From Candidatus Multivoradales bacterium (lineage in GTDB: Bacteria; Acidobacteriota; Thermoanaerobaculia; Multivoradales; J023): DNA of 64,000 nucleotides. Below, piece by piece: positions 25,441 to 42,893 of the stretch (the first letter of the stretch is position 1; every line of letters starts with the position of its first letter). Made by a program: the position numbers and the translations under genes. Location of the stretch: positions 963,700-1,027,699 of the forward strand of contig CBDFLE010000006.1 of the NCBI GenBank assembly GCA_965248925.1. The letters are read 5' to 3'. The notes beneath the pieces were generated by a model, which saw nothing but the letters and a program-made list of their open reading frames with translations, was not told where the DNA came from and ran no database searches.

Positions 25441-26888
25441 CAGGGCAACGATCGCACCCTCTTTCTGATCGATGGAGTGGAGGAGAACGATCTGTGGTCG
25501 AACATCGCCTATCTTTCGCGCCAATACCCGCTGTCCGACATCGACCGCATCGAGGTGGTCTACGGCCCGGCATCGACCATGTATGGCCCCAATGCTTTCG
25601 TCGGGGTGATCTCGATCTTGACCAAGAACGCCCGCCAACTAGTCGCCGCGGGCGAACGCATGGCGCTCCGCGCCGAGGCCGGCGGTGGTAGCTGGTCGAC
25701 TTCCTGGGTCGACGCCACGGTGGCGGCGCGCAGTGACTCTGGCAGCGTCGACTTCACCCTCACCGGCCGCTTCTACAGCTCGGAGGAGTTTGACCGCTCG
25801 AGCTTTGCCGACTGGGACTACGACCCGTCCTTCTACGCTCCGGAGAACGACGCGGTGCGCGGTGGCAGCAATTACCGCGGCCTCAACACCGAGCAGACCG
25901 AGCGCGCCCGCGACGATCTCAAGCTGGTGCTCGGCGGACGCCTCGACAACAACGACGCCGGGGCCCGGGTCGGGGTGCTCGACGCCGCGGGAAATCCGCT
26001 GGTGGTGACCGGCGCTATGGCAGTGAGTTCAATCCCCGCCTGGCGGTGGTCTACAGCCCCGGTGATCTGGTCCTCAAAGCGATTTACGCAGAGGCCTTCA
26101 AGGACGCCTCGAATTTCAACCGGTACGCCACCGCCGCCGGCATTCGGGACCTGCAGAACCCGTTTCTCAAGCCTGAGAAAATGGAGAATTTTGAGCTCGC
26201 CCTGGGCTGGGAGGGGGCGGCCCGGTGGAGCACTCAAACCAGCATCTACCAGGCAACCTACAGTGGCGCGGTCGGCCAAGTGCGGGTGCCGTTTCAGGGC
26301 GGCAGCACCGTCCAAAACCAGAATGTCGGCGCTCTCAAGATCCACGGACTGACGACCTCCGCGCGGTACCGGCGCGAGGGCTTCGGACTGTTCGCCAACT
26401 ACAGCTGGACCGAGCCGAAGAACCTCCAGCCCAGGGACAGCGCGGGCGACCGCTACCTCGACCCCGACGGCCGGCCAATCGCTGAGGTGCGGCTTGGCGA
26501 CATCGCCGAGCACCGTCTCAACCTGGGCCTCGACCTGGCATGGCGGGTGCACTTCGAGTTCGACCTGCGGCTGTCATGGGTCGGTGACCGCGACACCTTC
26601 GATGTTTGCAGCAACTGCCTGCCAGGTGGAGGCACCAGAGACGGCGAGCCTCCAGCGATGGCGACTGTCGGCAATCCGCTGCGCGAGATCGACGCCTATC
26701 TCGATGTCAACGCCACTCTGACCTGGAAAGATCCACTGCCCGCCAGCCGCCTGCAGCTGGTGCTGCGGAATCTGCTCGACAGCGAGTACGAGCACCCCGG
26801 AGTCCGCAGCGCCGATGGCAGGGTGTTCGCCACCAGCCAGCCGCAGAACGAGCGCAGCATCTTCCTCCGCTGGGCGGTGGGATTCTGA
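25440..26888 (+). pseudogene. TonB-dependent receptor remnant: 5'-truncated (starts mid plug domain) with an internal frameshift near 26000-26045.
   Basis: DRTLFLIDGVEENDLW...IDRIEVVYGPASTMYGPNAFVGVISILTK plug motifs with no signal peptide or TonB box. Frame switch before EFNPRLAVVYSP. C-terminal LRWAVGF. Confidence 0.65.
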
Positions 26889-26912
26889 GCCGGTGGAACC
26901 ACGAAGAAATCC

Positions 26913-27594
26913 GTTGGGCAGCCGGCCAGCGACTCGCGTCGACTTCATCAAGACTTCGCCGAGCGGCAACATCACGGCGCTGGTGCTACCGCTGGTGAAG
27001 CGCTCGCGGCAGGTCGAGATCGCCCATCGCCTGCTGCGCTACGACCCGCAGCTCGAGCAGGTCGGATTCGTCGAGCCCGCAGCGGGCAAAGCTATGGCCC
27101 GACTACAGATGATGGGCGGCGAACTGTGCGGCAACGGCGCCTGTGCGCTGGCCTGGCATCTGCGATCCCAGGTCGAACCAGTGGCCGAAGGTAGGCGCCG
27201 CCTGCGGCGGGCGATCATCAGCCCCCACAACCTGCCGTCTCTAGCCACTTTTCTCAACCACTGCGGCCATCTGGTAGAGCACTCCTACCCTCAGCTGCGG
27301 GGCTACGGCGAGCCCCGGTTGGCGGTGTGTGCGCAGCTCAGCGGCGCTGCCGATCTACACTACCGCATCGATCCAGCCTGCCTCGATCAACAGCTGGGGA
27401 GCGGCCAGGAAGGCGAAGACCATCTGCTGATCGATGGCACCAACCCGGCCGCTCTGCAGACCGCCCAGGCGCGGGGCTTCTACCCGGTGGCCCTACTGCC
27501 CTACACCGAAGACAGCGCCACTACGCACCTGCTGGGGTTACCCGCCAAGCGTCTCGCACTGCGCTATTCTGGGCCGCCCGCAAGGGTCGACTGA
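26913..27594 (+). CDS. DapF/PhzF-like epimerase-fold protein (hypothetical).
   Basis: VDFIKTSPSGNITALV and MMGGELCGNGACALAWHL resemble DapF FxKMHGxGNDF and CGNG active-site motifs. Putative TTG start. Confidence 0.35.
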
Positions 27595-29257
27595 TGCGCT
27601 TCAGCTTCCGGCGCCAGCTTCTCGAATTATTCGAGATTCGCTCTGGCGAAGGCCTTGCGATCGGTCTGCTACTGCTCTACTCGTCGTTGTCGGGCATTGT
27701 CGTAGGGTTCTATTTCACGGTCGCCAACGCCGCTTTCCTGAGCCAGTTCGACCTCTCCCAACTGCGCCAGATCCTACCCTTCGCCTATATGGCTTCGGGG
27801 GTCGTGGCAGCGCTGGCGGCGGCTCTTTTCGCTACCGCCGAGCATCGTCTCTCGCTACCCACGCTGCTGCTTGGCAATACGGCCTGCTTATTTTTCGTCG
27901 TGGGGGGCTTCGCGGTGGGATTCGGGCGCTCCAGCGGCGACCTGCTCAGCATCGCCAGCATTGTCTTCGTCGTCCCCATCCTGACCTTGCTCGATCTCGG
28001 CTTCTGGGGGTTTGGCCGGAGGTCTGCTCGACCTCGAACAGAGCAAGCGCCTACTCGGCGTCGTCAGCTCGGGCGAGGTGCTGTTAGCAGCGCTGAGCTT
28101 CCTCGCCGTGCCGTTGCTCTTCGACGCTGGCTTCGGCGCCGTGCTGCTGCTGACTCTTGCCACCGCCGCCTTACTCGCGACCCTACTCCTACTGCCGGTG
28201 ATCTTCGCCTGCCACCGGCAACGCCTCGAGGACAGCGGCGAGACTCTCGCCGAGCGATCCGCCGATGAGCCGGACGCGGCAGTCCAGAACAGCGCGGCGC
28301 GACGCTACCTAGCCCTGATGACCGCGGTCACCTTGCTGTTCATCCTGACGCAGTATTTTGTCGACTACAGCTTCCTAACCGAGATCCGCCAAACGATTCC
28401 GCAGCGGGGGGAGCTGACCCGCTTTCTAGGTTGGTTCTTCTTCGCCACTAAGACTCTTGAGTTGATCGTCAAGACCGTCGGGCTCGGCCGCCTGCTGCGC
28501 CATTTGGGCCTGTTCGGCGCCGGTGGCCTGCTGGCGCTGCTGGCCCGCAGCCCGATCCTCGGCGGCCTGGGGCCACGGCTGATGATCATGGCTTCGCTGC
28601 TCTGTGCCTGGTTGGCGGCCAGCTTGGCACTCTTTAGCGAGTATCGCGAACACCTCCTGGAGGCCCTCGACCGGCAAACTAGCCAGCTGCTCAACTCTCC
28701 GCTGGAGACCATCCGCAATCAGCTGGCGGGCGCCGAGCGCGATGAGCTGAGACTAGTGCTCAACGTGCTGCAGCGAGTCGAGCCGGAGTTCTTCAACCGT
28801 TCGCTGGCCGAGCTGCTGAGATCGCCGAAGCTGGCCAGCCGGAGCGAAGCGGTGGAGAGGGTGATCGAGCTGCGGCTGCTCCGAGCAGGGATAGAGCGGT
28901 TCGAGGCGGCTGAGAGCGATCTTCAGCTGCGCCAGCGGGCCGCGGAAGCCCTGCGCATCCTTAGACCAGGCCGAGCACTCTTCTAACACCCTCGAGAAAG
29001 TCACGGCACTGGCCGCCGGGGCGCTGCTCGAAACGGTAGGCAGTGCTCCCCAGGAGCTGTTCCTCAAGCTGCTCGCGGATGCCGACGTCCTGGGGGAGAT
29101 CGCGGTATTCGAATCCGGCAAACGGGTTGCCAACGCCACCTCTATCGGCCCAAGCCGTCTGCTGCGGGTCGACCGCCAGCAGCTCACCGACCTGCTGGCA
29201 GACCACTTCGAGATGCTACCGACATTTATCCAGGTCATCACCCAACGCCGGGCCTGA
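27594..29257 (+). pseudogene. Npt/TLC-like MFS transporter - HEAT repeat - partial cNMP-binding domain gene, disrupted by two frameshifts (~28010 and ~28985).
   Basis: Three consecutive frames carry protein-like sequence: MRFSFRRQLLELFEIRSGEG...(TMs); ...LFSEYREHLLEALD...HEAT...; ...DVLGEIAVFESGKRVANATSIGPSRLLRV... First shift is at a G5 run (ttctgggggttt). Confidence 0.5.
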
Positions 29258-29367
29258 AGGATCCCCCGGAGGGTCCCGATGAGACCCAGGAGCACGAGAT
29301 CGAAGCTGACTATCGCCACGATCCACGGGATTTGATTGACACCCTCGAGCGCTTCAATGCCTTCGAG

Positions 29368-29745
29368 CTATCCGCCGACCTCTTCGGTCGTGGCGTCATC
29401 AGCGCTGGCGGCAAAGCTGGCCACCGCCTCGGCTTCGTCGTCGTAGGATTCCAACAGCGGTAGGACCTGGCTGATCTCGAGCACGTCGCGAATCCGCCCA
29501 GCGGTCGACAGCAGCTTGAGCCGCGAGCCAAAACGGCCCGCCAGGCGATAGCCGGCCACCAACTCGCCAACCCCGGCACTATCGATACGGCTGAGTCCGG
29601 ACATGTTGAGCAGGATCTGCTTCCACTCGGCGGCAACCAGTTCGTTGATCACCTCGCGCAGCATCTCCTCAGGGCCACCGGCGATCAGACGGCCTTCGAG
29701 ATCGACGATCAGAGTTTTGCCGGACTGACGAAGTTCTACGTGCAT
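29368..29745 (-). CDS. STAS-domain anti-sigma-factor antagonist (SpoIIAA-like).
   Basis: LIVDLEGRLIAG...LNMSGLSRIDSAGVGELVAGYRLAGRFGSRLKL. Confidence 0.7.
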   Translation of the reverse strand: MHVELRQSGKTLIVDLEGRLIAGGPEEMLREVINELVAAEWKQILLNMSGLSRIDSAGVGELVAGYRLAGRFGSRLKLLSTAGRIRDVLEISQVLPLLESYDDEAEAVASFAASADDATTEEVGG

Positions 29746-29871
29746 AAGCTAAGCTCTCCTGGGTTCGCGGAGGCCGCAGGATAGCACGGCCAGAGGGCGG
29801 TGAAGCGATCGTCAGGGCACCGTCACAACAACCTCGGCGGCAGAGGGAATGTTGAGCAAGGGAGAGGGTCG

Positions 29872-30170
29872 ATGGCCGAGCGAGCAAGCGAGCAAGACAC
29901 CGCCGTAGGCGATTTCATGAGGCGGAATTTCCGCCACTTCAACGCCCGCTCTGTGGTCGAAGCGGCCGCCGCTTGGGTTGCTCAGCTAGACCAGGGCAAC
30001 CACATGTTCCTTACCTTGGCGGGGGCCATGAGCACTGCTGAAATCGGCCTACAACTGACCGAGATGATCCGCCGCGGCAAAGTCCACGGCATCTGCTGCA
30101 CCGGCGCCTACCCCGAGGAAGAGCTGTTCAACCTAGTCCCCCACGACCACCATGTGGGCTTCCGGATTGA
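29872..30170 (+). pseudogene. Deoxyhypusine synthase-like gene, 5' fragment only (~100 aa), paralogous to 37756..38736.
   Basis: MAERASEQDTAVGDFMRRNFRHFNARSVVEAAAAWVAQLDQGNHMFLTLAGAMSTAEIGLQLTEMIRRGKVHGICCTGAYPEEELFNLVPHDHH, then homology is lost although the ORF continues as low-complexity junk. Confidence 0.6.
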
Positions 30171-30217
30171 TCGAGAAAAACCCTCGGCCCCAGCGGTCGA
30201 CCGAGTAGGGATCGAGC
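30163..30217. repeat. ~55-nt segment ~85% identical to speA 5' coding region (22556..22610), at the breakpoint of the DHS-like fragment.
   Basis: attgatcgagaaaaaccctcggccccagcggtcgaccgagtagggatcgagcgag vs gttgatcgagaaaaatcctcggccccaactgtcgacccggtagagctcgcgag. Minus-strand translation gives ...DRWGRGFFSINP. Confidence 0.55.
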
Positions 30218-30376
30218 GAGCTGGCGGTCGCTGCTTGTGGCGGCTCGAGGGCGGATTGATCGACCGTCTACCTGGCTGCGTAGCATTAGGATACGATCCC
30301 CCCCACCAAACGCCTTATGAACACCAGAATCTTGGACTTCTTGCCGATGAACATTGCTGCAGATTGGCCGCGGCGC

Positions 30377-32101
30377 ATGGCCGGCGCCGCGGCGCTCGGG
30401 CTGTGGGCGTTGGCCTGCTCGGTAGAGTCTCCGGCGCCCGGCGGCGGCGACACCTCACATGCGCCGTGGTTCGTCGAGGTGCAGGACACCTCGGGACTCG
30501 ACTTCCGCCACCAGCACGGCGGCAGCGGCGAGCGCTACATGATCGAAACCATGACCGGCGGCGCCGGCTTGCTCGACTTCGACAACGATGGTTGGCTCGA
30601 CGCCTACCTGGTGCAGAGTGGGCCGCTGCCGGGTTTCGCCGATCAGACACCGCTACCCAACCAGCTCTATCGCCACCGCGGCGACGGGATCAACTTCGAA
30701 GACGTCACCGAGGGCTCGGGAGCCGGCGACACCGGCTACGGCATCGGCACCTGCTTCGGCGACATCGACAACGACGGCTGGATCGACATCTACGTCACCA
30801 ATCTCGGTCAGGACACGCTGCTGCGCAACCGCGGCCTGAGCGACGGCCGAGTCACCTTCGAAGACGTCACCGCGGCGGCCGGCATCGACAGCCCGGCCTA
30901 TGGCTCGAGCTGCGCTTTCGCCGACTACGACCGCGACGGCTGCCTCGACCTGTTCGTGGTCAACTTTGTCAACTTCACCCTTGAGAACCACCTGCGCTGC
31001 GGCGCCGAGAAGTTGCGCACCTACTGCTCGCCCGACGTCTACGACGGCCTGCCCGACCAGCTCTACCGCAATCACTGCGACGGCTCAGGCGGTTTCGACG
31101 ACGTCTCCGAGGCCGCCGGGGTGGTCAACCACGACCCCGAGCAGGGCAAGGGGTTGGGGGTGGTTTGGACCGACTTCGATGACGACGGCGACCTCGACAT
31201 CTACGTCGCCAACGACTCGACTCGCAACTTCCTCTACAGCAACCGCGGCGACGGCACCTTCGAGGACGTGGCGATCTTCGCCGGCGCCGCCTTCAACGAC
31301 CGCGGCCTGACCGAAGCCAGCATGGGGCTCGACGCCGGCGACTACGACGGCGACGGCCGCCTCGACCTGTTCATGACCCACCTCGACTTCGAGTCCAACA
31401 CCCTCTATCGCAACGCCCCCAACAACCTCTTCCTCGACTCCAGCGCCATGACCGGGGTGGTGACGCCGAGCGCCACGCGGGTCGGCTTCGGAACCAACTT
31501 CCTCGACTTCGACCACGATGGCGACAACGATCTCTTCGTCGCCAACGGCCATATTCTCGACAACGCCAAGGAGCGTAATCCGACCCTCGACTACGAGCAG
31601 CGCAACCAGCTGCTGGAGAATCGCGATGGCCGTTTCGTCGACGTTTCGGGGCAGGCCGGCGAGCATTTCACGATCCGCCGGGTCGGCCGGGCCTCGGCCA
31701 CCGGCGACCTCGACAACGACGGCGATCTCGATCTGCTGATCGCCAACTCCAACCGCGAGGTCGTGGTGCTGCGCAACCAGCGCGAGCTGATCGGCGGCGG
31801 GCGCCGCTGGCTGATGCTGCGCCTGCTGAGCCGCCACGGTGGCCGCGACGCGATCGGCAGCCGAGTGCGGGTCATTGCCGGCGATCGGATCTGGGTCGAC
31901 GAGATCCACAGCGGCGCCAGCTACCTCGCCCAGAGCGATCTGCGGGTCCATTTCGGACTGGGAGAGATCGATCGCATCGACCGGATCGAGATCCGCTGGC
32001 CGGAGGGGGAAATCCAGCAGCTCGATGGCGCCGGCTTGGAGCTCGACCGGCTGCACACCCTCCGCCAGCCGGCTGCGCCAGCCGCGGAGGAAGGCCGATG
32101 A
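30377..32101 (+). CDS. CRTAC1-family protein (FG-GAP/VCBS repeats + ASPIC/UnbV domain), lipoprotein.
   Basis: Repeated DxDxDGxxD FG-GAP motifs (FDNDGWLD, DIDNDGWID, DLDNDGDLD) and C-terminal UnbV-like segment. Lipobox LWALACS. Confidence 0.75.
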   Translation: MAGAAALGLWALACSVESPAPGGGDTSHAPWFVEVQDTSGLDFRHQHGGSGERYMIETMTGGAGLLDFDNDGWLDAYLVQSGPLPGFADQTPLPNQLYRHRGDGINFEDVTEGSGAGDTGYGIGTCFGDIDNDGWIDIYVTNLGQDTLLRNRGLSDGRVTFEDVTAAAGIDSPAYGSSCAFADYDRDGCLDLFVVNFVNFTLENHLRCGAEKLRTYCSPDVYDGLPDQLYRNHCDGSGGFDDVSEAAGVVNHDPEQGKGLGVVWTDFDDDGDLDIYVANDSTRNFLYSNRGDGTFEDVAIFAGAAFNDRGLTEASMGLDAGDYDGDGRLDLFMTHLDFESNTLYRNAPNNLFLDSSAMTGVVTPSATRVGFGTNFLDFDHDGDNDLFVANGHILDNAKERNPTLDYEQRNQLLENRDGRFVDVSGQAGEHFTIRRVGRASATGDLDNDGDLDLLIANSNREVVVLRNQRELIGGGRRWLMLRLLSRHGGRDAIGSRVRVIAGDRIWVDEIHSGASYLAQSDLRVHFGLGEIDRIDRIEIRWPEGEIQQLDGAGLELDRLHTLRQPAAPAAEEGR

Positions 32102-33576
32102 CCCGCTCGCTGAGGGTGCTTTGCGCCGCGGCCCTGCTGCTCGCTGCCTGCGCTGCCGATCCATCGCCGCCGCCGGCCTACCAGCTGACGCCGGAAGAGC
32201 AAGCGCTGATGGCCCGGATCACCGAGCTGCAATCGCTGCGCGAGTACGATGAAGGCATCGCCGCGGCCGAGGCTTTTCTCGCCACCCATCCCGACGCCCG
32301 CCGGATCCACTACGCGATAGGCGTGTTGCACGGCCTGTCGGACCGGCACCGGCAGGCGCTGGCAGCTTTCGAGCAAGAGCTGGCCATCGACCCGACTCAT
32401 CTGGCGAGCTATCGCGGCAGCGCCACGGCACATACCTTGCTCGGCCAAGCAGAGGCCGCTATCGAGAAGCTCCGTCAGGCATTGCAGATCGCTGCCGATC
32501 GTCCCGAGGTCATGCTGGATCTTGGTAGGGCACTTTCGAACTTCGGCCAACTCGACCAAGCCGAGCCGCTACTGCGCCAGGCGTCTCACAGCGGTGGCGC
32601 AGCAGCCCGGGTCGAGCTCGGCATCCTGCTGCGCCGCCAGGGCCGGCTCGAGGAGGCGGCGGAGGCCTTCCGCAAGGCTCTGCAAGAGGATCCTCGGCAG
32701 CTCAGTGCGATGTCCAACCTCGGCCAGACTTTGAGCGCGCTGGGTCGAGCCGCCGAGGGCCAAGCTCTCTTGCGGCATCACGCCCGGCAGGCATCCCTGC
32801 ACGACCGACTCGATATCTATCAGCGCAGTAGCCTGCTCGAGGGCGCGACAGCGGCCAACTTCCTGCAATTGGCGATACTGCAAATCCGCTCCCGCAAGAC
32901 CGCCGAGGCCGTCGAGTCCTATCGCCGAGCCCTGGAGCTGGATCCTCGATCGACGACCGCCACCCTCGGTCTGGCGGCTCTCTTCCGCCAGAACGGACAA
33001 GCCGGCGAGGCGACCAAGTGGACGGTCCACACCCTGCTGATCGATCCGCAAAACAGCAAGGCGCACTTTCTCCTCGGCATGCTCCGCTTGTCGAAGGGGC
33101 AGCTCGATCTGGCGCTACAAGCTTTCGCGACTTCGCGCCAGCACGAACCTTGGCAGGCCGAGGCCTACTGGCGAACCGGTAACGTCCTTCGATCCCGCTC
33201 CCAGCTGGACCAGGCAGAGCAACACTACCGTCAAGCGCTGGCCTTGAATCCAGAATCAGCGCCAGCACTCTTCGGCATCGGCTTCAGCCAAATGTTGCGA
33301 GGCGAACCAGACCTGGCCATCGCCAACTTACGCCACGCGGCCGCACTGAATAGCTCGGACGCCGACAGTCAGCTGCTGCTCGGCCTGGCGCTGGCCGCCA
33401 GCGGTGACCCTGCGGGGGCAGAAGATATCTGGCGCTCGGCCGCCACCCTGCACCGACTCGATCTGCTGACCGGCAAGACCCTCGAGCAGCTACTGGCACC
33501 GTTCTCGGCCTTGCAAGCCCTCGACGCCACCGCCGCCGGCTTGGAGCGCTACCGGGCGCTGTTGGCGCCGGGGTAG
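32098..33576 (+). CDS. TPR-repeat lipoprotein.
   Basis: Signal peptide LLLAACA, multiple TPR units. Overlaps upstream and downstream genes. Confidence 0.75.
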   Translation: MTRSLRVLCAAALLLAACAADPSPPPAYQLTPEEQALMARITELQSLREYDEGIAAAEAFLATHPDARRIHYAIGVLHGLSDRHRQALAAFEQELAIDPTHLASYRGSATAHTLLGQAEAAIEKLRQALQIAADRPEVMLDLGRALSNFGQLDQAEPLLRQASHSGGAAARVELGILLRRQGRLEEAAEAFRKALQEDPRQLSAMSNLGQTLSALGRAAEGQALLRHHARQASLHDRLDIYQRSSLLEGATAANFLQLAILQIRSRKTAEAVESYRRALELDPRSTTATLGLAALFRQNGQAGEATKWTVHTLLIDPQNSKAHFLLGMLRLSKGQLDLALQAFATSRQHEPWQAEAYWRTGNVLRSRSQLDQAEQHYRQALALNPESAPALFGIGFSQMLRGEPDLAIANLRHAAALNSSDADSQLLLGLALAASGDPAGAEDIWRSAATLHRLDLLTGKTLEQLLAPFSALQALDATAAGLERYRALLAPG

Positions 33577-33585
33577 GGCCGAGCG

Positions 33586-35844
33586 GTGTTGAGGCGGTAC
33601 AGCGCCTGCCTGCTGGCGGCGGCCCTGCAGATCTCCTGCGGTGAAGCCGAAGACCGCTCCCAGCCTACGGGCTCTCACCTCCCAGCGACCTCACCGGCCC
33701 GGCCAGCCGTGGTAGAGCCCCATCGACCCGCCCCCATCCGACCGCCGGGCAATGCGGATCTGCCCCCCTTCTCGGAGCTGCTTTCCGAGGCCATCGAAGC
33801 CCCCGACCCGATGCGCTCGCTGACTCTGGGCCGGCAACGGGTCGCCCTGGTCCGGGACCGCCTGGATCGCGCCGGCAAGGCGCGCGAGCGTTTTCAGCTG
33901 ACCGTCGCGCTGGGCCGCGAGCAGCTCTGGGCTGGTCAGACCGAGGAGGCGATCAAGACCTTTCGCGGGGCGCTCGAGATGCCGGCGGCGACCGAGCATG
34001 CCGAGGAACGCCGCCAAGTGCGCAAATGGGTGGCGATCGCCTACCTCCGCCTGGGCGAGGAAGAGAACTGCCTGGCGCTGCACCGGGCGGGCTCGTGCAT
34101 CTTGCCGATCGCCGAGGACGCTCGCCACGTCGAGCAACGCGGCTCAAAGGCCGCCATGGCGGAGCTGATCGCGCTGCTCGCCGAGAAGCCCACCCCTGGG
34201 CTGCGCTGGCTGCTGAACCTGGCGGCGATGACCCTCGGCGAGTATCCCGACGGGGTTCCCGCCGAGCACCGCCTCCCCCGCCGCCTGCTGGCGGGCGAAA
34301 CCAGCGAGTTGCCGCGATTCGTCGACCGGGCGGCGGAGTTCGGGCTCTCGGCAGCTGGACTCTCGGGCGGCGTCGTCACCGAGGACTTCGACGGCGACGG
34401 CCGGCTCGACGTGATGGTGTCCTCATGGGGGCTGCACGATCCGCTACGGTTGTTCCGCAACCAGGGCAATGGCACCTTCGCCGAGGCTGGCACCGCGGCC
34501 GGTCTCGGAGATGAGCTGGGCGGCTTGAACCTGATCCACGCCGACGACAACAACGACGGCCATCCCGACGTGCTGGTGCTGCGCGGCGCCTGGTTGGGCG
34601 CCGCCGGGCTGCATCCCAACTCGCTGTTGCGCAACCACGGCGACGGCACCTTCAGCAACGTCACCCTAGAAGCCGGCCTGCTCGGCTACGCCCCGACCCA
34701 GACCGCGGCTTGGGCCGACTACGACGGCGATGGTTGGCTCGATCTGTTGATCGGCAACGAGGCCGGCAGCGGCGCCTACACACCCTGCCAGCTGTATCGC
34801 AATCACGGCGACGGCACCTACTCGGACGTCGCGCCGCAGCTCGGGCTGGACATCTCGGCCTTCGTCAAAGGGGTCGCCTGGGGCGACTACGACGACGACG
34901 GCTGGCCTGATCTCTACCTGTCGATCTTCGGCCAGCCCAACCGGCTGTTGCGCAACCAAGGTCCGGCGGCCGGTTTTCGCTTTGCCGACGTCACCCGGGC
35001 CGCCGGGGTGGCGCAGCCGCTCAAGAGCTTCGCCACCTGGTTCTGGGACTACGACAACGACGGCCTGCTCGACCTGCTCGCCGCTTCCTACTCGGGCCTC
35101 AGCGCCGAGTCGCTCGACGAGGTGGTCCGCGACCTGCTCGGCGAAGAGACCGCGGGCGAGCGGCCGCGCCTCTACCGCAACCGCGGCGACGGCACCTTCG
35201 AAGACCACACCGCGGCGGCCGGCCTCGACACCGTGCTGCTGGCGATGGGCGCCAACTACGGCGATCTCGACAACGACGGCTTTCTCGACGTCTACTTCGG
35301 CACCGGCGAGCCGAGCTTCTCGACCCTGGTGCCCAACCGCATGTTCCACAACCGAGCCGGCCGCACCTTTGACGACGTCTCGCTCGCCGCCGGCTTCGGC
35401 CATCTGCAGAAGGGCCACGCCATCGCCTTCGCCGACCTCGACAACGACGGCGACCAGGATGTCTACGCGGTGATCGGCGGCGCCTATGCCGGCGACGTCT
35501 ACCCCGATGCGGTGTTCGTCAACCCGGGCAGCAGCAACCGCTGGCTGACCCTGCGCCTCGAAGGCAGGCGCGCCAACCGATCGGCGATCGGCGCGAGGGT
35601 CGAGGTCCGAGTGGTGGCGCCCGGCGGCGAACGTTCGATCTTCCGCACCGTCAGCACCGGTGGCAGCTTCGGCTCGTCGAGCTTGCAGCTGGAGATCGGC
35701 TTGGGCTCGGCCGCGGAGCTGCTGGAGGTGAACATTCGCTGGCCGCTTCCGGGTCTGGGCCGGCAACGCTTCACCGATCTCGAGAGCAATACGATCTACC
35801 GCTTGATCGAGGGCGAGCAGGAGGCGATTCGAGAGCTACCCTAG
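33586..35844 (+). CDS. CRTAC1-family protein (FG-GAP/VCBS + ASPIC/UnbV) with N-terminal TPR-like region.
   Basis: FG-GAP motifs (FDGDGRLD, YDGDGWLD, YDDDGWPD, DLDNDGFLD, DLDNDGDQD) and UnbV-like C-terminus. Confidence 0.75.
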   Translation: MLRRYSACLLAAALQISCGEAEDRSQPTGSHLPATSPARPAVVEPHRPAPIRPPGNADLPPFSELLSEAIEAPDPMRSLTLGRQRVALVRDRLDRAGKARERFQLTVALGREQLWAGQTEEAIKTFRGALEMPAATEHAEERRQVRKWVAIAYLRLGEEENCLALHRAGSCILPIAEDARHVEQRGSKAAMAELIALLAEKPTPGLRWLLNLAAMTLGEYPDGVPAEHRLPRRLLAGETSELPRFVDRAAEFGLSAAGLSGGVVTEDFDGDGRLDVMVSSWGLHDPLRLFRNQGNGTFAEAGTAAGLGDELGGLNLIHADDNNDGHPDVLVLRGAWLGAAGLHPNSLLRNHGDGTFSNVTLEAGLLGYAPTQTAAWADYDGDGWLDLLIGNEAGSGAYTPCQLYRNHGDGTYSDVAPQLGLDISAFVKGVAWGDYDDDGWPDLYLSIFGQPNRLLRNQGPAAGFRFADVTRAAGVAQPLKSFATWFWDYDNDGLLDLLAASYSGLSAESLDEVVRDLLGEETAGERPRLYRNRGDGTFEDHTAAAGLDTVLLAMGANYGDLDNDGFLDVYFGTGEPSFSTLVPNRMFHNRAGRTFDDVSLAAGFGHLQKGHAIAFADLDNDGDQDVYAVIGGAYAGDVYPDAVFVNPGSSNRWLTLRLEGRRANRSAIGARVEVRVVAPGGERSIFRTVSTGGSFGSSSLQLEIGLGSAAELLEVNIRWPLPGLGRQRFTDLESNTIYRLIEGEQEAIRELP

Positions 35845-35921
35845 CCTGCTGCGCTCAACAAAAATGGCATCCCGAAGGATGCCATTTTTGTTAGACAAGC
35901 TGTAGCCGCGGTCGATCTGGA

Positions 35922-36605
35922 TCAATCGACGGTGAAGCCCTGCAGCTCGACCGGCACCAACGAGCAGCCGGTGGCGGTGACTTCGATGATGTCCAGGGTG
36001 TACGCTCCGGCAGCTGTGTTCCAGCCATCGGCGATCAAGAAGTAATCAGTCCCTGCGGTGGCAGTGAAAGTAATGTCTTCTCCGGTACCACCATTGTCCT
36101 GGGAAGCGATGCAAGTTCCCGCCAGATTCGTGCAGTCGGTGACGACGTAGATCACCTCGTCATGAGCGCCATCTATCAGAGCATTGACATCGCAGGTGAC
36201 ATCGACTTGCACCCGCCAGGCTTCGTCGTTGGCGCTGCTATTGAAAGTCGTGTCACAAACCCCACCGATGCCGGCGATGTCATAGTCGGCGGAAAGAGCG
36301 GTGGTGTCACCGCCACTGGAGTACGGCACGGCGCCAACCTCGTTCGTCGTGCCAGGGCACATGTCAGCGGGCGCGCGATTGATCGGCAGGACCTTCTGAC
36401 CCAGGATGGTCGCGGTGCCGGCCGGAGCCTTGGCGGCTGGCATCATCTCTTGGTAGGCGGCCCGCTCGCTCGGGGTCAAGCTATGCCAGGTCAATTTGAC
36501 CTGATCCCAGTCGATGTCCTGAGCGGCGAGAGGGCTGGTGAGCAGCAAGGCGACAATGGCTAGCAAACAAGCGAGGCGTGAGAAGCTCTTCATGAATAAC
36601 TCCAA
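35922..36605 (-). CDS. Secreted Cys-rich protein with PPC-like C-terminal domain ending in the tail EVTATGCSLVPVELQGFTVD.
   Basis: Signal peptide MKSFSRLACLLAIVALLLTSPLAA. The C-terminal tail recurs at 37388 and 43702. Confidence 0.55.
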   Translation of the reverse strand: MELFMKSFSRLACLLAIVALLLTSPLAAQDIDWDQVKLTWHSLTPSERAAYQEMMPAAKAPAGTATILGQKVLPINRAPADMCPGTTNEVGAVPYSSGGDTTALSADYDIAGIGGVCDTTFNSSANDEAWRVQVDVTCDVNALIDGAHDEVIYVVTDCTNLAGTCIASQDNGGTGEDITFTATAGTDYFLIADGWNTAAGAYTLDIIEVTATGCSLVPVELQGFTVD

Positions 36606-36730
36606 AGTTCTGTTTCGAGACGGCTCGGATCAACGGCCATCTCAGGTACTCATACACTCAAGCTTTCTTGCCACATGGCTCGAAGCTCGGCAATCTCCAA
36701 ACAATCTGTTGGGCTGGTTAGGTCTGGATC

Positions 36731-37285
36731 TCAAGCGAGGCGGGGCGGCGGGTCCGGCGGCGCGCCCTCAAATAGCCTAGCGATCAGCGGTACGGAGGCC
36801 GACGAGGCCGCCAGAGAGGCCTCGGGCAGGCCGGGAACCCTACGGAGGTCCGCCGGGCTCGAACGCTGCGACGACGTCGCGGATTGCGTATCCTGACACC
36901 GCGGCACCTGGACGTCGAAGCTGCCGAGCACCACTTCGCGGTCGACGATCACCTCGCTACCGCGCGCGGCGACCCGCAGCTGGTAGGTCTGGACTCCGTC
37001 CGAAGCCGAATGACCTACCCGGTAGTCGGCGTTGCCGGGGATCGCCGGCAGCTCGTAGAGCAGCTCGAAGTCCTCCAGGCCACCGCGGCGGTAGAGCCGG
37101 AACACCCAACCGGGGCCGGCAGTGGTCGCCTCCCAGGCAATGTCGAGTTCCCCCGTCGAGTGGATCACCAGGGGCTGCTGCGCGGCTACCTCCGCGGACC
37201 GCGGCGTCACCGGCAACTCGACCCGCGCGGACGCAGGTAGGCCTTGCCACACGACTACAAGGCAACTCGCAATGGCCCCGACCAT
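36731..37285 (-). CDS. Secreted hypothetical protein.
   Basis: 184-aa ORF with N-terminal hydrophobic segment. No recognisable domain. Confidence 0.35.
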   Translation of the reverse strand: MVGAIASCLVVVWQGLPASARVELPVTPRSAEVAAQQPLVIHSTGELDIAWEATTAGPGWVFRLYRRGGLEDFELLYELPAIPGNADYRVGHSASDGVQTYQLRVAARGSEVIVDREVVLGSFDVQVPRCQDTQSATSSQRSSPADLRRVPGLPEASLAASSASVPLIARLFEGAPPDPPPRLA

Positions 37286-37387
37286 CCACCTCCCGGCAGG
37301 ATCGGATACGGAAACCCGTCGTTCGTTTCTGATAGGGGATTACTACCACAGAGACCCGTTGCCCGCAAGCGCATCCCGGCTTGGCGG

Positions 37388-37582
37388 TCAATCGACCCTG
37401 AAGCTCTGCAGCTCCACCGGGATCGAGCAACCGGTGGCGGTGGCTTCAGAAATCTGCCGCCAGGCGGCGGCGATCAGCTCGTTGATCACTCCGCGAAACA
37501 TCTCCTCAAGGCCGCCGGCGACCCGACGGCCTTCGAGGTCGACGATCAAGGTGCTGCTGGACTGACCAAGCTCTACCTGCAT
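37388..37582 (-). pseudogene. Chimeric 64-aa ORF: N-terminal 45 aa of a STAS antagonist paralog fused to the C-terminal tail ...ATGCSIPVELQSFRVD of a secreted-protein paralog.
   Basis: MQVELGQSSSTLIVDLEGRRVAGGLEEMFRGVINELIAAAWRQ is ~85% nt-identical to 29620..29745. The last 65 nt are ~85% identical to 35922..35987. Confidence 0.5.
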
Positions 37583-37643
37583 GGGCTATGCTCCCCGGGC
37601 GCCGCAGGGTGTCTTGCAAACCGTGCCAAGGTCTGCGGAAACC

Positions 37644-37695
37644 GCAAGATCGCACTGCAAGATCGCACTGCAAGATCGCACTGCAAGATCGCACT
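37644..37695. repeat. Perfect 13-bp tandem repeat x4 (gcaagatcgcact) in the intergenic/promoter region upstream of the DHS-like gene.
   Basis: Read directly: accgcaagatcgcactgcaagatcgcactgcaagatcgcactgcaagatcgcactgcgg. Confidence 0.85.
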
Positions 37696-37755
37696 GCGGA
37701 AGCGCCGCGACAGCCGCCGGCGGCAGATGGAAAGCCGACGTGAGGAGTCCGCCCC

Positions 37756-38736
37756 TTGAGCGACGAAAATATCTCAGTGCGCGACTTCATGCGGCGCAAC
37801 TTTCGCCACTTCAACGCCCGCTCGGTGGTCGAGGCGGCCGACGCCTGGGTCGCTCAGCTGCGCCAGGGCAACCACATGTTTCTCACCCTGGCTGGGGCGA
37901 TGAGCACCGCCGAGATCGGCCTCCAGCTGGCCGAGATGATCCGCCGTGGCAAAGTCCACGGCATCTGCTGCACCGGCGCCAATCTCGAGGAAGACCTGTT
38001 CAACCTGGTCGCCCACGACCACTACCAGCGGATCGCCGATTGGCGTTCGCTGACCGCCGGGAATGAGGCCGAACTCGCCGAGCACGGCCTCAACCGGGTG
38101 ACCGACACCTGTATCCCTGAAGTCCAGGCGATGCGCAAGATCGAGCAGCTGATCGCCCTGCGGTGGCACGATGCCGAGGCCGCTGGCCAGCGCCACCTGC
38201 CGCACCAGTTCGTCTATCAGCTGCTACTCAGCGGCGACCTCGAGGAGGCTTACCAGATCGATCCCAACGACTGCTGGCTATTGGCGGCGGCGCAGCGGGA
38301 CCTGCCCCTCTTCGTCCCCGGCTGGGAGGATTCGACCCTCGGCAACATGTTCGTCGCCCGCCATCTGAGCGGCGAGATCGCCAATCTCGACACCGTCAAA
38401 GGGGGCTTGCACTACATGCAGGAATTGGTCGATTGGTACCGCCGCGAGACGGCGGAGCGATGTCTCGGGTTTTTCCAAATCGGTGGCGGAATCGCCGGCG
38501 ATTTCCCAATCTGCGTGGTGCCGCTGATCCAACAGGATCTGGACCAGGAGATTGGCTTGTGGTCCTACTTCTGCCAGGTCAGCGACAGCACCACCTCCTA
38601 CGGCTCCTACAGTGGCGCGGTGCCGAACGAGAAGATCAGCTGGGGCAAACTGGCGCCGGAGACGCCGAAGTTCATCATCGAGAGCGACGCTTCGATCGTC
38701 GCGCCGCTGGTCTTCGCCTGGGTCCTGGCAAGCTAG
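37756..38736 (+). CDS. Deoxyhypusine synthase-like (DHS/homospermidine-synthase family) protein.
   Basis: FMRRNFRHFNARSV...TLAGAMSTAEIG...KVHGICCTGANLEEDLFNL. TTG start with GAGGAG RBS. Confidence 0.75.
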   Translation: MSDENISVRDFMRRNFRHFNARSVVEAADAWVAQLRQGNHMFLTLAGAMSTAEIGLQLAEMIRRGKVHGICCTGANLEEDLFNLVAHDHYQRIADWRSLTAGNEAELAEHGLNRVTDTCIPEVQAMRKIEQLIALRWHDAEAAGQRHLPHQFVYQLLLSGDLEEAYQIDPNDCWLLAAAQRDLPLFVPGWEDSTLGNMFVARHLSGEIANLDTVKGGLHYMQELVDWYRRETAERCLGFFQIGGGIAGDFPICVVPLIQQDLDQEIGLWSYFCQVSDSTTSYGSYSGAVPNEKISWGKLAPETPKFIIESDASIVAPLVFAWVLAS

Positions 38737-38811
38737 CCGCGACGGTCGACTAGAACGTGGTGTGTTAAAACAGGGACCGCCACTCTTTGACCCAACTCTG
38801 GAGGACCGCCC

Positions 38812-40197
38812 ATGGCCCGCTTCCGCGTCCCGCACACGCTCGTCCTGCTCTTCGCCATGATCGTCTTGGCCCTGCTGATGTCCTACATCCTGCCCCAGGG
38901 CGAGTTCGAGCGCTTCGAGAACGCCAACGGTCGGCAGCAGGTCAAGGCGGGCACCTACACCATGCTCGAGGACGTCGAGCGAGTCTCGCCGCTGGCCATC
39001 TTCACCGCCATTCCTCGGGGCTTCGAAGCGGCGGCGGAGATCATCTTCTTCGTCTTCATCGCCGGTGGCATGTTCGCCGTGCTGCGCAAAACCGGCACCG
39101 TCGACGCGCTGATTGGCCTCTTGCTCGACAAACTGGGCGGCGCCCCACAGCTGCTGATCGGCGGCGGCATCTTCGTCTTCGCCGTCGGCTCAAGCACCAT
39201 CGGCATGGCCGAGGAGTACATCCCCTTCGTGCCGGTGCTGCTCGCCCTATGCTTCGGCCTGGGCTTCGACGCGGTGACCGCCATCGGCATCCTCTGCGTT
39301 GGCTACGGGGTGGGCTATGGCACCGCGCTGATCAACCCTTTCACCGTGCTGATCGCCCAGGACGTCGCCGAGCTGCAGCCGACCTCGGGACTGGGTTATC
39401 GCGCGCTGCTGTTCTTCGTCTTCGTGGCACTCGGCACGCACCACGTCTGGTCCTACGCCAAGCGAGTGCGCAAAGACCCGGCGGCGAGCCTGGTGGCCGA
39501 CATTGAGCCCGACCCGAGCCTCAAGGCCGCCGAGCGGGTACCGATGACCAGCAGCCATTGGCTGATCCTGGCCATTCTGCTGGCGACCATCGGTCTGATC
39601 GTCTGGGGCCTCAGTCAGTGGTCGGGATGGCATTGGTACGTCCACGAAATGGGCGCTGTCTTTCTAGGTTTGTCCGTGGTGTTGGCGCTGGTCGGCCGGC
39701 TGAGTCCAGACTCCGCCGCCAAATCGTTCTGTGCCGGCGCTGCCGAACTCACCACCACGGCGTTGCTGATCGGTTTTGCCCGCTCGATTCTGATCATCCT
39801 CGAAGACGGCAGGGTGATCGACACTTTGGTGCACGGTATCTCGCTGCCCTTGACCCACGCCGGTCCGATGCTGGCGGCGGGCGGCATGCTGGCCTTCCAG
39901 AGCCTGTGCAACCTCTTCATCCCCTCCGGCTCGGGCCAGGCCTACGTCACCATGCCGATCATGGCGCCGCTCGGCGACTTGGTTGGAGTGCAACGGCAGG
40001 TGGCGGTGCTGGCCTACCAATTCGGCGACGGCTTGACCAACATCCTGGTGCCCACCAACGCGGTGTTGATCGGCATCCTGACCATGGCCCGGATCCCTTA
40101 CGACCGCTGGTTACGCTTCATCCTGCCGTTCATGTTCAAGGCCTGGGCCTTGGCCGCCGTGGCCTTGGCGGTGGCGGTCTGGTTCGGTTACAACTAG
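38812..40197 (+). CDS. YfcC-family polytopic transporter (putative basic amino acid/C4-dicarboxylate carrier-like).
   Basis: 461 aa, ~12 TM. Architecture and motifs ([18 protein letters not shown]) are consistent with YfcC/DcuC-like carriers. Family call is moderate. Confidence 0.55.
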
Positions 40198-40235
40198 AAT
40201 TCGTCCTTCCACTACTTGTTCGAGGATCTCTTTCT

Positions 40236-42893
40236 ATGCCCTCAGGCCTTGCCCGTTTCTTATCGCCATCGCCCGGTGTGTTCCGCCTCTCCACCAAGAC
40301 CGTGGGCAGTCTGCTGCTGGCCGCCACCCTGCTGCTGGCGGGTTGTGGCGACTCGGGGGAGCCACCGGCCTTCAAAATCTTGCTCGAGCACTCGGGGGTC
40401 TATGCGGTCAGCTGGGATCAGCTGAGCCTCGCCGGCCTCGGCCAACGGCGCCCCGACTCCGCGAACCTCGGCGTCACCCACCTCGGCGAACCGCTGCCGA
40501 TTTGGTTGGTCGACGGCGGCGATGGCCACTTCGACCCCGGCGACCATTTCGAGTTCATCGGCCAAGCTCGCCCCGGAGACAGGTCCTATTTCAGCGAACA
40601 TGATCCCTGGAATGCCTACCGCCTGAGCTTCGATGGCAGCGCCGTCGAGCGCTTGCAAGACGGCTCCACCACCGCCGGCAGCTCTAGCCCAGCTGCTTCG
40701 GCAAGCGGTTTCTTCAGTGTTCGGGAGCACCTTGAACGTGATCGTCTGATGCTGCGCTTCGCCCGCGACCGCACGGGCACCTCACCCGAGCCCTGGTACT
40801 GGGCCAAGCTGACTCAGATCGACCACCATCCCTTCAAGCAGCTGCTCGACCTCTCGACCTTGGATCGCCAATCGCCACGGCCCTTGTCCCTGCGCATTGA
40901 GCTGCGCGGTTGGTCGAAGCAGCCGCGCAAGCCGGCCGGCGCTGCGGCCGATCATCGCGTCGAAGTGCTGTTTAACCAAGAGTTGATCGGCGCTGGTGAG
41001 TGGGATGGCCAAGAGGCCTTCGTCATCGACATTCCGCAAGTGCCCCGCAAGCTCCTGCGGCGGCGCGCTGAGCAAGCTCTGAAGCTGCGAATACCGCAAC
41101 GCAAGGCTGGAGACAAGGACGAGTTCCTGGTCGATGTGGTGATGCTGAACTGGATCGAGATCGAATTTCCGCGCACGGATCAACTGAGCGAAGTCCAGGA
41201 GCGTCTGTTCCTCGACGGCGCCGATCTCGCAACTCCCCTGCGCCTCGAATCCAACGCTCCACCGGTGCTCTACAGCGACCGCTTCCGGATCGAAATCGAC
41301 CCGGCGGCGGACGGCACTTTCTTGCCTCCCGCCGAAAATGCACGGCTCTACGCCGTACCCACCGGTACCCTGTTGACCGCGGACAGGGTGCTGATCGACA
41401 CCCCTTCCTCGCTGCGCGACGACCAGCTCCAAGCCGACTATTTGATGATCGCCCATCGCAGTCTGAAGCAAGAGATCGAGCCCCTCGCCAAGCTCCACCG
41501 CGAGCGCGGCTTGGCGGTCACGGTGATCGACGCGGAGGACATCTACGACGAGTTCTCCCACGGCCTGGTCGAGCCGCGGGCCATCCGTGACTTTATCGAC
41601 CACGCCTACCATCACTGGCAAGCGCCGCGGCCACGCTTCGTGCTACTGGTGGGCGACGCCAGTTGGGATACTCGCAACGAGGACAATCTGGACCGCAACT
41701 ACGCCGATTGGACCTACCGCGGTGGCGAAGTGCGGCGCTTCTGGAAGAACGACAGCACCGCCTATGCCGACGACAGCGGCGCTAGCCGCAACCTGATTCC
41801 AACCTGGCACTACCAGTCCCACGAGGGCCACGCCGCCAGCGACAACTTCTTTGTCAATGTCGCCGCCCGCTTGGAGGGCGACGCCGACGCAGTGAAGAAC
41901 TTCCACCCCGAGCTGGCGATCGGTCGCTTGCCGGTGACCGAGCCGGCGGAAGTCGCCCAGATCGTCGCCAAGATCAAGCGCTACGTCGAGACTCCCCAGG
42001 TTGGCGAATGGAAACGGCGGGTGCTGTGGATCACCAACGAGAACCGCATCTACCAAAAGCAAGACGACAATCTGGCCAATAAACTAGGGGCCCATGGCTA
42101 CGCCGCGGCCAAGATCTACCCCAAACCGCAAGAGAAAGACAACGTCCACCACCAGCAAGCACTGCTCGACGCCTTCGACGAGGGCAACCTCCTGGTCCAC
42201 TTCATCGGCCACGGCGGCCGCTACATCTGGCGCACCGGGCCGCCCGATGTGCGCAAGAACCACGACCTCTTCACCCTCGATCACCTCGATCAACTACAGC
42301 CCCACGACCGGCTGCCGGTGGTGCTCAGCCTGACCTGCTACTCGGCCCCCTTCGACCACCCATCGGCCGATTCAATCGGCGAGAAGTTCCTGCGCCTGCC
42401 AGATCGCGGCGCCATCGCGGTGTTCGCCGCCTCCTGGCGCAACAATCCAACTTCGTGGTTTGGCGAGACCTTGACCCATGAACTCACCGACCGCCAAGTC
42501 GCTACCGTCGGCGAAGCGATCCGCCGTGCCAAACGGCAAATCCGCAACGCCGACCTAGTCGAGACCTACAACTTGCTGGGCGACCCGGCCTTGCCCCTGG
42601 CACGACCTCAGCTGGATCTGGAGTTGGCCCTAGAGGCCGACCGGCAGGTGCTGAAGGTGCGGCTACCAACCAAGAAATTCAACGGCCAGGCGATCGTCGA
42701 CTGGCACGGCTACAGCGGTGAATTAATCAACAGCGACCAGATCGAGGTGCGCGGCGACACCTTCGAGGCGCCGTGTCCGGCAAACTGCGGCGAACCAGGT
42801 GGCACGGTGCGGATCTATGCTTGGGACCCGCGGCAACAGCTCGACGCGGTCGGCGGAATGCGCTTCAAAGGCTCGCCGAACAAGCCCTCTTGA
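40236..42893 (+). CDS. Gingipain-like peptidase C25 family lipoprotein.
   Basis: Lipobox LLLAGCGD. C25 catalytic His/Cys context: FVLLVGDASWD, LLVHFIGHGGRY, VVLSLTCYSAPFD. Confidence 0.7.
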   Translation: MPSGLARFLSPSPGVFRLSTKTVGSLLLAATLLLAGCGDSGEPPAFKILLEHSGVYAVSWDQLSLAGLGQRRPDSANLGVTHLGEPLPIWLVDGGDGHFDPGDHFEFIGQARPGDRSYFSEHDPWNAYRLSFDGSAVERLQDGSTTAGSSSPAASASGFFSVREHLERDRLMLRFARDRTGTSPEPWYWAKLTQIDHHPFKQLLDLSTLDRQSPRPLSLRIELRGWSKQPRKPAGAAADHRVEVLFNQELIGAGEWDGQEAFVIDIPQVPRKLLRRRAEQALKLRIPQRKAGDKDEFLVDVVMLNWIEIEFPRTDQLSEVQERLFLDGADLATPLRLESNAPPVLYSDRFRIEIDPAADGTFLPPAENARLYAVPTGTLLTADRVLIDTPSSLRDDQLQADYLMIAHRSLKQEIEPLAKLHRERGLAVTVIDAEDIYDEFSHGLVEPRAIRDFIDHAYHHWQAPRPRFVLLVGDASWDTRNEDNLDRNYADWTYRGGEVRRFWKNDSTAYADDSGASRNLIPTWHYQSHEGHAASDNFFVNVAARLEGDADAVKNFHPELAIGRLPVTEPAEVAQIVAKIKRYVETPQVGEWKRRVLWITNENRIYQKQDDNLANKLGAHGYAAAKIYPKPQEKDNVHHQQALLDAFDEGNLLVHFIGHGGRYIWRTGPPDVRKNHDLFTLDHLDQLQPHDRLPVVLSLTCYSAPFDHPSADSIGEKFLRLPDRGAIAVFAASWRNNPTSWFGETLTHELTDRQVATVGEAIRRAKRQIRNADLVETYNLLGDPALPLARPQLDLELALEADRQVLKVRLPTKKFNGQAIVDWHGYSGELINSDQIEVRGDTFEAPCPANCGEPGGTVRIYAWDPRQQLDAVGGMRFKGSPNKPS

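Follow-up and report, generated by a model that had tools for sequence, protein, structure and literature searches.

Does the pairing of a STAS-domain regulator with an enzyme of the deoxyhypusine synthase (DHS) family, met twice within one bacterial chromosome, mean that the two proteins work together? This question is raised by a 64,000-nucleotide stretch of the genome of Candidatus Multivoradales bacterium (contig CBDFLE010000006.1), hereafter called the window, which carries two diverged and incomplete copies of a divergently oriented STAS-DHS gene pair. The first-pass annotation of this DNA had described reciprocal decay of two complete pairs and had seen in the conservation of the pairing the sign of a functional link. 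Our analysis favours another answer, to which we give a probability of about 60%: the region would be a recombination scar in a single homospermidine-biosynthesis locus, and not two decayed paralogous gene pairs. In this locus, speA encodes biosynthetic arginine decarboxylase and speY designates the DHS-like gene, whose product is predicted to be a SpeY-type homospermidine enzyme.

The two copies form an imperfect direct repeat (copy A, 29615-30150; copy B, 37452-38022). Each of them combines STAS codons 1-44, encoded on the minus strand, with the first ~90 codons of a DHS-like gene on the plus strand, and an intergenic region separates the two divergent genes (Table 1). This repeat is the longest of the three long-range repeats of at least 60 bp found in the window and is therefore not a chance match. 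The DHS parts of A and B are 84% identical at both the nucleotide (nt) and the amino acid (aa) level, and the STAS parts 81% (nt) and 73% (aa). All descriptive claims of the first-pass annotation hold with small corrections of coordinates. Copy A indeed associates an intact STAS gene with the 5' end of a DHS gene (89 aligned codons, previously ~100) and copy B an intact 326-aa DHS gene with the 5' end of a STAS gene (44 codons, previously 45) fused to the tail of a secreted protein; the coding identity had been put at ~85%. The strong ribosome-binding sites reported before both DHS genes can be read directly from the sequence (GGGAGAGGG before the ATG of DHS-A, GAGGAG before the TTG of DHS-B). 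Furthermore, since the copies differ at 16-19% of their coding positions, a duplication created by assembly, which had been named as a possible refutation, is not credible.

Table 1. Features of the speA-STAS-speY region (positions in the window; strand given where it applies)
Feature	Position	Strand	Description
speA	20733-22847	-	Complete gene for biosynthetic arginine decarboxylase, native partner in this locus; scores above cut-off with NCBIfam NF003763 (830 bits) and TIGR01273 (742 bits)
STAS-A	29368-29745	-	Intact single-domain STAS gene (anti-sigma-factor antagonist type); 125 aa; Pfam STAS E=2.5e-11
Repeat copy A	29615-30150		Native type; STAS codons 1-44, intergenic region A, DHS codons 1-90
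Intergenic region A	29746-29871		
DHS-A relic	29872 (ATG)-30153	+	Native 5' end (~94 codons) of a SpeY-type gene, putatively cut off by insertion
speA relic	30142-30219	-	26 codons (residues 81-106, window speA numbering), convergent on and abutting DHS-A; SLDPYSVDRWGRGFFSINPEAHMVVV; tblastn E=4e-5
Cargo between relics	30220-37387		7.2 kb
Cargo, FG-GAP/UnbV_ASPIC gene	30317-32101	+	Pfam assignment
Cargo, TPR gene	32098-33576	+	Pfam assignment
Cargo, FG-GAP/UnbV_ASPIC gene	33586-35844	+	Pfam assignment
Cargo, secreted-type ORF	35922-36605	-	227 aa
Cargo, ORF	36731-37285	-	184 aa
Tail relic	37388-37450	-	Last 19 codons and stop of a paralogue of the 227-aa gene (ending ATGCSIPVELQSFRVD and stop), joined to STAS-B codon 44
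STAS-B relic	37451-37582	-	Codons 1-44 of a diverged STAS gene, start of a 64-aa chimeric ORF; 73% aa identity to STAS-A
Intergenic region B	37583-37755		31-bp insertion relative to the A type
DHS-B	37756-38736	+	Intact DHS homologue, predicted SpeY type, 326 aa; mosaic, codons 1-~175 of putatively imported type, rest of native type
DcuC/YfcC-family transporter gene	38812-40197	+	Native flank; Pfam DcuC 5e-92; syntenic with L169

The ancestral state of the locus can be read from its relatives. The neighbourhood survey consists of loci that are 37-66% identical among the matches listed; close relatives were reached via cluster members instead, and the comparison is anchored on four short contigs (L084, L087, L169 and L170). 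In L170, which shows 88% nt identity to copy A, an uninterrupted DHS gene is divergent from a STAS gene (91% aa identity) followed by speA, and this DHS gene, of at least 117 codons, continues normally past codon 90. In L087, STAS is also followed by speA: the distance from the STAS stop to the conserved speA core is ~65 nt, and the speA open reading frame (ORF) as called overlaps the 3' end of STAS. In both contigs STAS lies directly upstream of speA, with ~45-65 nt or less between its stop and the conserved core. L169 is 89% identical (nt) to positions 37759-40369, shares the synteny of the DHS and DcuC genes and has an A-type intergenic region. Its intact DHS gene stands beside a STAS stub of 16 codons, which is fused to or overlaps the end of an unrelated GFO/IDH/MocA-like oxidoreductase ORF (this part of the contig covering positions 1-731). 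Since this STAS breakpoint and this neighbour differ from those of copy B, at least two independent rearrangements have affected the DNA upstream of speY. L084 shares synteny with the sequences to the left of STAS-A and ends inside STAS at about codon 32. L084 and L169 come from the same sample and the L169 stub holds STAS codons 1-16; the organism may thus also carry two partial STAS copies, or the contigs may belong to different strains.

In the nearest outgroups with context, L001 (72% aa identity) and L171/L172 (74%, a metagenome-assembled genome of Thermoanaerobaculia), speA and the DHS gene are directly divergent, ~220 bp apart and without STAS. Together, the intact locus of L170, the STAS-speA order of L087 and the speA-DHS arrangement of the outgroups indicate that the ancestor of the narrow clade had the order speA <- STAS <-> speY -> dcuC. 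The STAS gene therein is a lineage-specific insertion into an older divergent speA-speY pair. Since the locus of L170 is compact and undisrupted, both copies of the window trace to one ancestral pairing. The divergent pairing is therefore real and, as the L170 locus indicates, ancestral in a narrow lineage, but it is not general and its two copies are not independent evidence.

The divergence of the copies is distributed as a mosaic. Between the DHS 5' ends of A and B, the ratio of non-synonymous to synonymous divergence (dN/dS) is 0.11 and the synonymous divergence (dS) 0.68, with 27 of the 42 differences at third codon positions. This indicates that the copies diverged while both were in working genes, mostly under purifying selection, which excludes a simple tandem duplication in place whose stub would have been neutral from birth. 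Over the shared 267 nt of the DHS 5' end, A clusters with the relatives, from which B stands apart (identities: L169-L170 0.951, A-L170 0.903, A-L169 0.880, B-L170 0.873, B-L169 0.854 and A-B 0.843). Repeat copy A likewise groups with L170 (90.3% for the DHS part, 95.5% for the STAS part) and with L169 (88%). When L169 is taken as the reference, dS is 0.365 for fragment A, 0.364 for DHS-B codons 176-326 and 0.341 for the downstream DcuC gene, which is syntenic in L169 and 88.9% identical (nt). In DHS-B it reaches 0.707 for codons 2-90 and 0.600 for codons 91-175 (0.65 for codons 2-175). The equal dS of fragment A, the 3' half of DHS-B and DcuC suggests that the first two share the history of the native gene. 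The 5' half of DHS-B would come from a lineage about twice as distant.

The maximum chi-square method places the breakpoint at ~38280 (permutation p=0.001 for DHS and DcuC together, p=0.015 within DHS), and the synonymous-site proportions, 0.435 vs 0.277, differ (z~3.3); the mosaic junction rests on a single reference relative, L169. This mosaic of synonymous divergence fits a single splice into one native locus better than reciprocal decay of two complete pairs.

Constraint also differs between intact genes and stubs. STAS-A is strongly constrained by purifying selection (dN/dS 0.048 vs L170 and 0.058 vs L084), and its lineage-specific changes are four synonymous and no non-synonymous ones. 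It matches PF01740 (43.7 bits) and PF13466 (32.8 bits) above cut-off, marginally misses TIGR00377 (49.3 bits for a cut-off of 53.45) and carries the motif D55-S56-x-G58, in which D55, S56 and G58 are invariant in alignment A3. The changes specific to STAS-B are 2 synonymous and 9 non-synonymous, including R6G and L20R at near-invariant positions. As for DHS-A, tblastn matches it to residues 2-90 of DHS-B only (84% aa identity, ending at 30153); the longer ORF of 370/394 aa runs on by chance, in a frame other than that of the FG-GAP gene which it overlaps. Its lineage-specific changes are 6 synonymous and 7 non-synonymous, compared with 15 and 5 for the intact DHS-B, and five of the seven replacements affect family-invariant positions (N76Y, L77P, D80E, A86P and Y90H). 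Both stubs, DHS-A and STAS-B, thus show relaxed constraint and are decaying.

The genes to the left of STAS-A (24642-29319) also look decayed when compared with the intact cluster of L084. The TonB-dependent receptor gene is split into two overlapping ORFs, with most of the plug domain missing, the nSTAND1 NTPase is cut short at position 239 of its 379-position profile and the HEAT-repeat gene is split across frames. In addition, ~1.3 kb of L084 (507-1798, most of a cNMP-binding gene and the 3' end of the HEAT gene) corresponds to ~53 bp in the window (29017-29071). With the DHS-A stub on its right, the intact STAS-A is therefore flanked by pseudogenes on both sides.

At the left, putatively illegitimate junction (30142-30153), the homologies to DHS and to speA share a few bases, possibly TGG or GTGG, at a joint blurred by the divergence of both stubs. 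The speA relic shows 79% nt and 73% aa identity (the latter counted by eye) to the speA of L087, 75% nt identity to that of L170 and 61% aa identity to the intact speA of the window. Its position against DHS-A and its orientation are those that the left end of a second speA-STAS-DHS module should have, which supports an import. The intact speA of the window is 87% identical (nt) to that of L170, which directly follows STAS there, and lies 6.5 kb from STAS-A and 15 kb from speY (DHS-B). Further non-homologous junctions are found at ~30220-30240 and ~37450. The latter, where STAS-B is joined to its tail, is the second illegitimate junction: tblastn and nucleotide alignment show that the tail is ~80% identical (nt) to positions 35922-35990, the 3' end of the neighbouring 227-aa gene. 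In the 5' end of STAS-B, and in the bases immediately ahead of its start codon, derived states are found that L087 also has (5 vs 2 vs 0 informative site patterns, a weak support).

On the basis of these patterns, we propose that ~8 kb (30142 to ~38280) from a homologous, roughly twice-as-diverged speA-STAS-speY locus would have been spliced into the native speY. The right end would result from homologous recombination inside the DHS gene, with a crossover around codons 175-250 (~38280), and the left end from an illegitimate join of native DHS codon ~90 to donor speA codon ~106 over a 3-5 nt overlap. The 7.2-kb FG-GAP/TPR cassette would either have been present in the donor already or have arrived by a later second event. 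On the left, such a splice would leave the native STAS gene intact and the 5' end of the native DHS gene as a dead stub (copy A); on the right, an intact chimeric DHS gene would be rebuilt behind an imported promoter region, and the imported STAS and speA genes would persist only as stubs of 44 and 26 codons. Of speA, STAS and speY, the genome would thereby retain exactly one working gene each. The anatomy, the undisrupted locus of a relative, the mosaic of divergence and the relaxed constraint of the stubs are seen directly in the data. From the divergence patterns we infer how many events took place and in what sequence, that the B-type tract is of foreign and not of paralogous origin, and that the mechanism would resemble homology-facilitated illegitimate recombination (HFIR).

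Several points weigh against this scenario. Only the four short contigs anchor the comparison, and the donor lineage would lie outside the sampled relatives, L087 being equidistant from A and B overall (0.81 vs 0.82). The DHS protein is by nature most variable in residues 91-175, although dS is also high there (0.60), and the maximum chi-square breakpoint is not significant when DHS third positions only are considered (p=0.11). At least one extra event is needed to put the cassette between the speA and STAS stubs, unless it was already in the donor. Moreover, an import would presuppose DNA uptake by this organism, and the junctions are known from the assembled sequence alone.

No integrase, transposase, replication or transfer domain was found among the five long ORFs of the cargo, two of which encode small unassigned proteins, and the cargo gave no match to plasmids; the only integrase gene (5022-6197) lies 24 kb away. 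On the basis of these five ORFs and the plasmid comparison, a mobile-element cargo was rejected. The window also carries another FG-GAP/UnbV_ASPIC and TPR pair (43722-47246), downstream of a C25 peptidase gene (39558-42893). With only 26-39% aa identity to the cargo genes, this pair is an old paralogue and not the template from which the cassette was copied. The end of the 227-aa secreted-type protein (35922-35990) and the relic tail (37388-37450) have in common a C-terminal motif, TATGCS(L)xPVELQxFxVD followed by the stop. No Pfam or NCBIfam model matches PVELQxFxVD, which occurs only at these two places within the window, and this tail may be an undescribed C-terminal sorting tag.

The proposed splice has known counterparts. 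HFIR, as defined in PMC3240628, and the stub-leaving gene displacement known from the effector-immunity arrays of the type VI secretion system of V. cholerae (PMC5361080) share three features with our locus: one end inside homology, giving a mosaic gene, the other end at a possible overlap of a few bases, and a native relic beside the insert. Our case differs from HFIR in that the tract would be ~8 kb long with two further non-homologous junctions, and in that it is deduced from divergence patterns.

A second duplication of a gene 5' end with the same topology (5' stub, insert, full gene) is found 20 kb away in the window (9000-9280 and 10444-10725). There, the first 85 codons of a Ser/Thr kinase-caspase gene (7271-9253, minus strand) are repeated at 10443-10697 with 92% aa and 89% nt identity, and a DUF3800 gene (9523-10413) lies between the stub and the full gene. 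This second example suggests that recurrent recombination of this kind shapes the genome. Upstream of this region, a low-GC stretch (3000-6200; 0.54-0.58 vs ~0.64 elsewhere) lies by the gene of a phage-type integrase (5022-6197) and is probably the edge of an integrated element.

The strongest competitor of the recombination scar, which we nevertheless regard as unlikely, is an old tandem duplication of the whole speA-STAS-speY module, both copies having remained functional while diverging before deletions set in. One deletion would have taken away DHS-A from codon 91 onwards and, with it, the 3' part of the second speA, and a second rearrangement would have exchanged speA-B codons 1-80 and STAS-B codons 45-125 for the cassette. 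Such a history corresponds to the reciprocal decay described in the first-pass annotation. The A-B dN/dS of 0.11 agrees with two copies that were once working genes, and the junction of DHS codon 90 with speA codon 106 is precisely the product expected of a deletion between two convergent neighbouring genes; moreover, A and B are mutually closest over the N-terminal 90 aa (84%, vs 74-77% for the best match outside the window). However, DHS-B is syntenic with L169 and yet its 5' half has a dS of 0.65-0.71, compared with 0.365 for fragment A, only its 3' half being at the background of 0.34-0.36. An old duplication therefore needs an extra step of gene conversion or recombination. It requires at least three events in all, and L170 and the outgroups have single compact loci.

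Less probable still is an insertion of the Campbell type, by which a circle carrying the cassette and a segment made of STAS codons 44-1, the intergenic region and DHS codons 1-90 would have integrated by a single crossover, duplicating this segment. As in insertion-duplication of this kind, direct repeats of a 5' gene segment flank a cargo, the upstream copy being truncated and the downstream one complete. Both ends of the repeat coincide with ends of homology, the DHS(90)/speA(106) junction would also be expected from circularisation of an excised speA-STAS-DHS fragment, and the same topology is seen again at 9000-10725. Nevertheless, a single crossover inside the repeat does not predict that raised dS runs past the repeat into codons 91-175 (0.60), where the diverged tract seems to extend here, and the cargo offers neither integrase, replication or transfer genes among its five long ORFs nor a plasmid match.

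The interpretation that started this work must be placed lower again: we consider it very improbable that selection maintains STAS and the DHS-like enzyme as a regulatory pair in which partner switching controls polyamine synthesis and duplication or complementation is adaptive. What speaks for such a module is that the polyamine locus of L170 includes STAS, that STAS directly precedes speA in both L170 and L087, that STAS-A is under strong purifying selection and that a ~70-nt block is almost invariant among A, L170 and L169. Beyond the close relatives, the pairing disappears. Among the matches listed, no STAS gene adjoins any of 83 DHS loci from many phyla (893 kb, searched with a single STAS query and a 21-sequence STAS profile), the one weak STAS match lying 5.8 kb away, and none of 80 STAS loci has a DHS or speA gene nearby. 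These counts leave nothing in favour of a general STAS-DHS link and answer negatively the neighbourhood check that the first-pass annotation had proposed; the adjacency was seen in L170 alone, L169 having a relic of it. Around STAS relatives of 57-63% aa identity, the neighbouring genes are different ones. L169 keeps its DHS gene beside a dead STAS stub, and in the window the intact STAS gene lies 8 kb from DHS and 6.5 kb from speA, which indicates that adjacency is dispensable. The two copies, deriving from one locus, give no independent evidence of a functional link.

Partner-switching control of the DHS-like enzyme, also suggested earlier, is not borne out either. Like SpoIIAA/RsbV antagonists, STAS-A is a single STAS domain of ~110 aa with the conserved serine of DS(A/S)G. 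Unlike in SpoIIAA/RsbV modules, no RsbW/SpoIIAB-type kinase (HATPase_c), PP2C/SpoIIE phosphatase or sigma factor was found among the 54 longer ORFs of the window that were scanned, and TIGR00377 is just missed. Such partners could be encoded elsewhere in the genome. Finally, an assembly artefact (two strains joined into a chimera, or a repeat that was collapsed or duplicated) is scarcely credible: the sequence is a metagenome-derived single contig of 5.2 Mb and L084 ends inside STAS, but a strain switch would fall inside homology without duplicating sequence, which agrees neither with the coding divergence of the copies nor with their non-homologous junctions, the genes on either side of the junctions are intact and in frame, and the relics show the decay expected of real pseudogenes.

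Alignment of the intergenic regions, which had been named as a check, does reveal conserved sequence. The ~70-nt block extends over the STAS start and the adjacent intergenic DNA (29700-29800) and is almost invariant in A, L170 and L169, where nearby synonymous sites differ by 0.14-0.38; it persists even where the STAS gene is reduced to a dead stub. Within the block lies a small palindrome, GCGG-N3-CCGC, which copy B shares (GCGGAAACCGC); the block could be an operator or promoter element. The 31-bp insertion of region B accompanies a perfect 13-bp tandem repeat (GCAAGATCGCACT, 4.2 copies, 37644-37697; TRF score 108, 100% matches), whose unit aligns to the motif GCAGGATAGCACG; A-type intergenic regions conserve a single copy of this motif. 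In L169, another tandem repeat, with an 11-bp unit (CAGAGGCAATA, ~3 copies, contig positions ~800-840), occupies this intergenic region at a place closer to speY. No Rfam match, even at E<=1, was obtained for a riboswitch or known RNA in either intergenic region, nor were sigma-70-like promoters or terminators found.

As for the enzyme, DHS-B matches the Pfam DS family (PF01916) over residues 18-321 (141.9 bits, E=3.3e-41) and belongs to a bacterial family conserved at 58-74% identity over many phyla. W296, G297 and K298 of its SWGK motif are invariant in the 26-sequence alignment A2, and we take K298 to be the imine-forming catalytic lysine of DHS. It scores below the cut-offs of the NCBIfam equivalogs NF002699 (G44G synthase, 80.7 vs 500 bits) and NF001980 (homospermidine biosynthesis protein, 123.3 vs 450 bits). 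DHS-B is a member of the deoxyhypusine synthase family, but is not assignable to a curated equivalog. The product of the downstream transporter gene reaches 315 bits with NCBIfam YfcC, under the 500-bit cut-off.

According to Li et al. (2026, J Biol Chem, PMC13625781), SpeY homologues of DHS join two molecules of agmatine, the product of arginine decarboxylase, to give bis(guanidino)homospermidine, from which homospermidine is made, and speY clusters with arginine decarboxylase genes. Our locus resembles these clusters: DHS-B has the DS domain and the invariant lysine motif, is 58-66% identical to homologues from many phyla, those of Caldilineaceae, Bacteroidota and Melainabacteria-type genomes among them, and in relatives the DHS gene stands beside an AR-fold speA. 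Arginine decarboxylase genes (full or substantial speA-length matches) are adjacent to DHS or within ~4 kb of it in 11 of the 83 listed loci; they are directly divergent in L001 and L171, and one is present in L170. In contrast to these clusters, no agmatinase or iminohydrolase gene was seen adjoining DHS-B, and the STAS gene between speA and speY in the narrow clade is not described in PMC13625781, a paper that makes no mention of STAS and in this respect also speaks against a functional module.

Both the gene families and the kind of rearrangement found here are already known. The scar is an ordinary rearrangement and not evidence that regulator and enzyme work together, and it illustrates a caution: a pairing conserved in two copies of one genome, both derived from one locus, is not independent evidence of function. 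It is also a clean, datable example of how an insertion would leave the 5' stub of a native gene and at the same time rebuild a working chimeric gene. As a biological lead, there is only the lineage-specific STAS gene in the speA-speY homospermidine locus. Although weakly supported, and with a slim chance in our estimate of reflecting a real regulatory link, it would mean that in a narrow acidobacterial (Thermoanaerobaculia-like) clade a single-domain STAS protein was recruited to the homospermidine locus as the first gene of a STAS-speA operon divergent from speY. In this doubtful scenario, the STAS protein may couple a partner-switching phosphorylation signal to agmatine and homospermidine synthesis, the ~70-nt block being possibly part of the control region.

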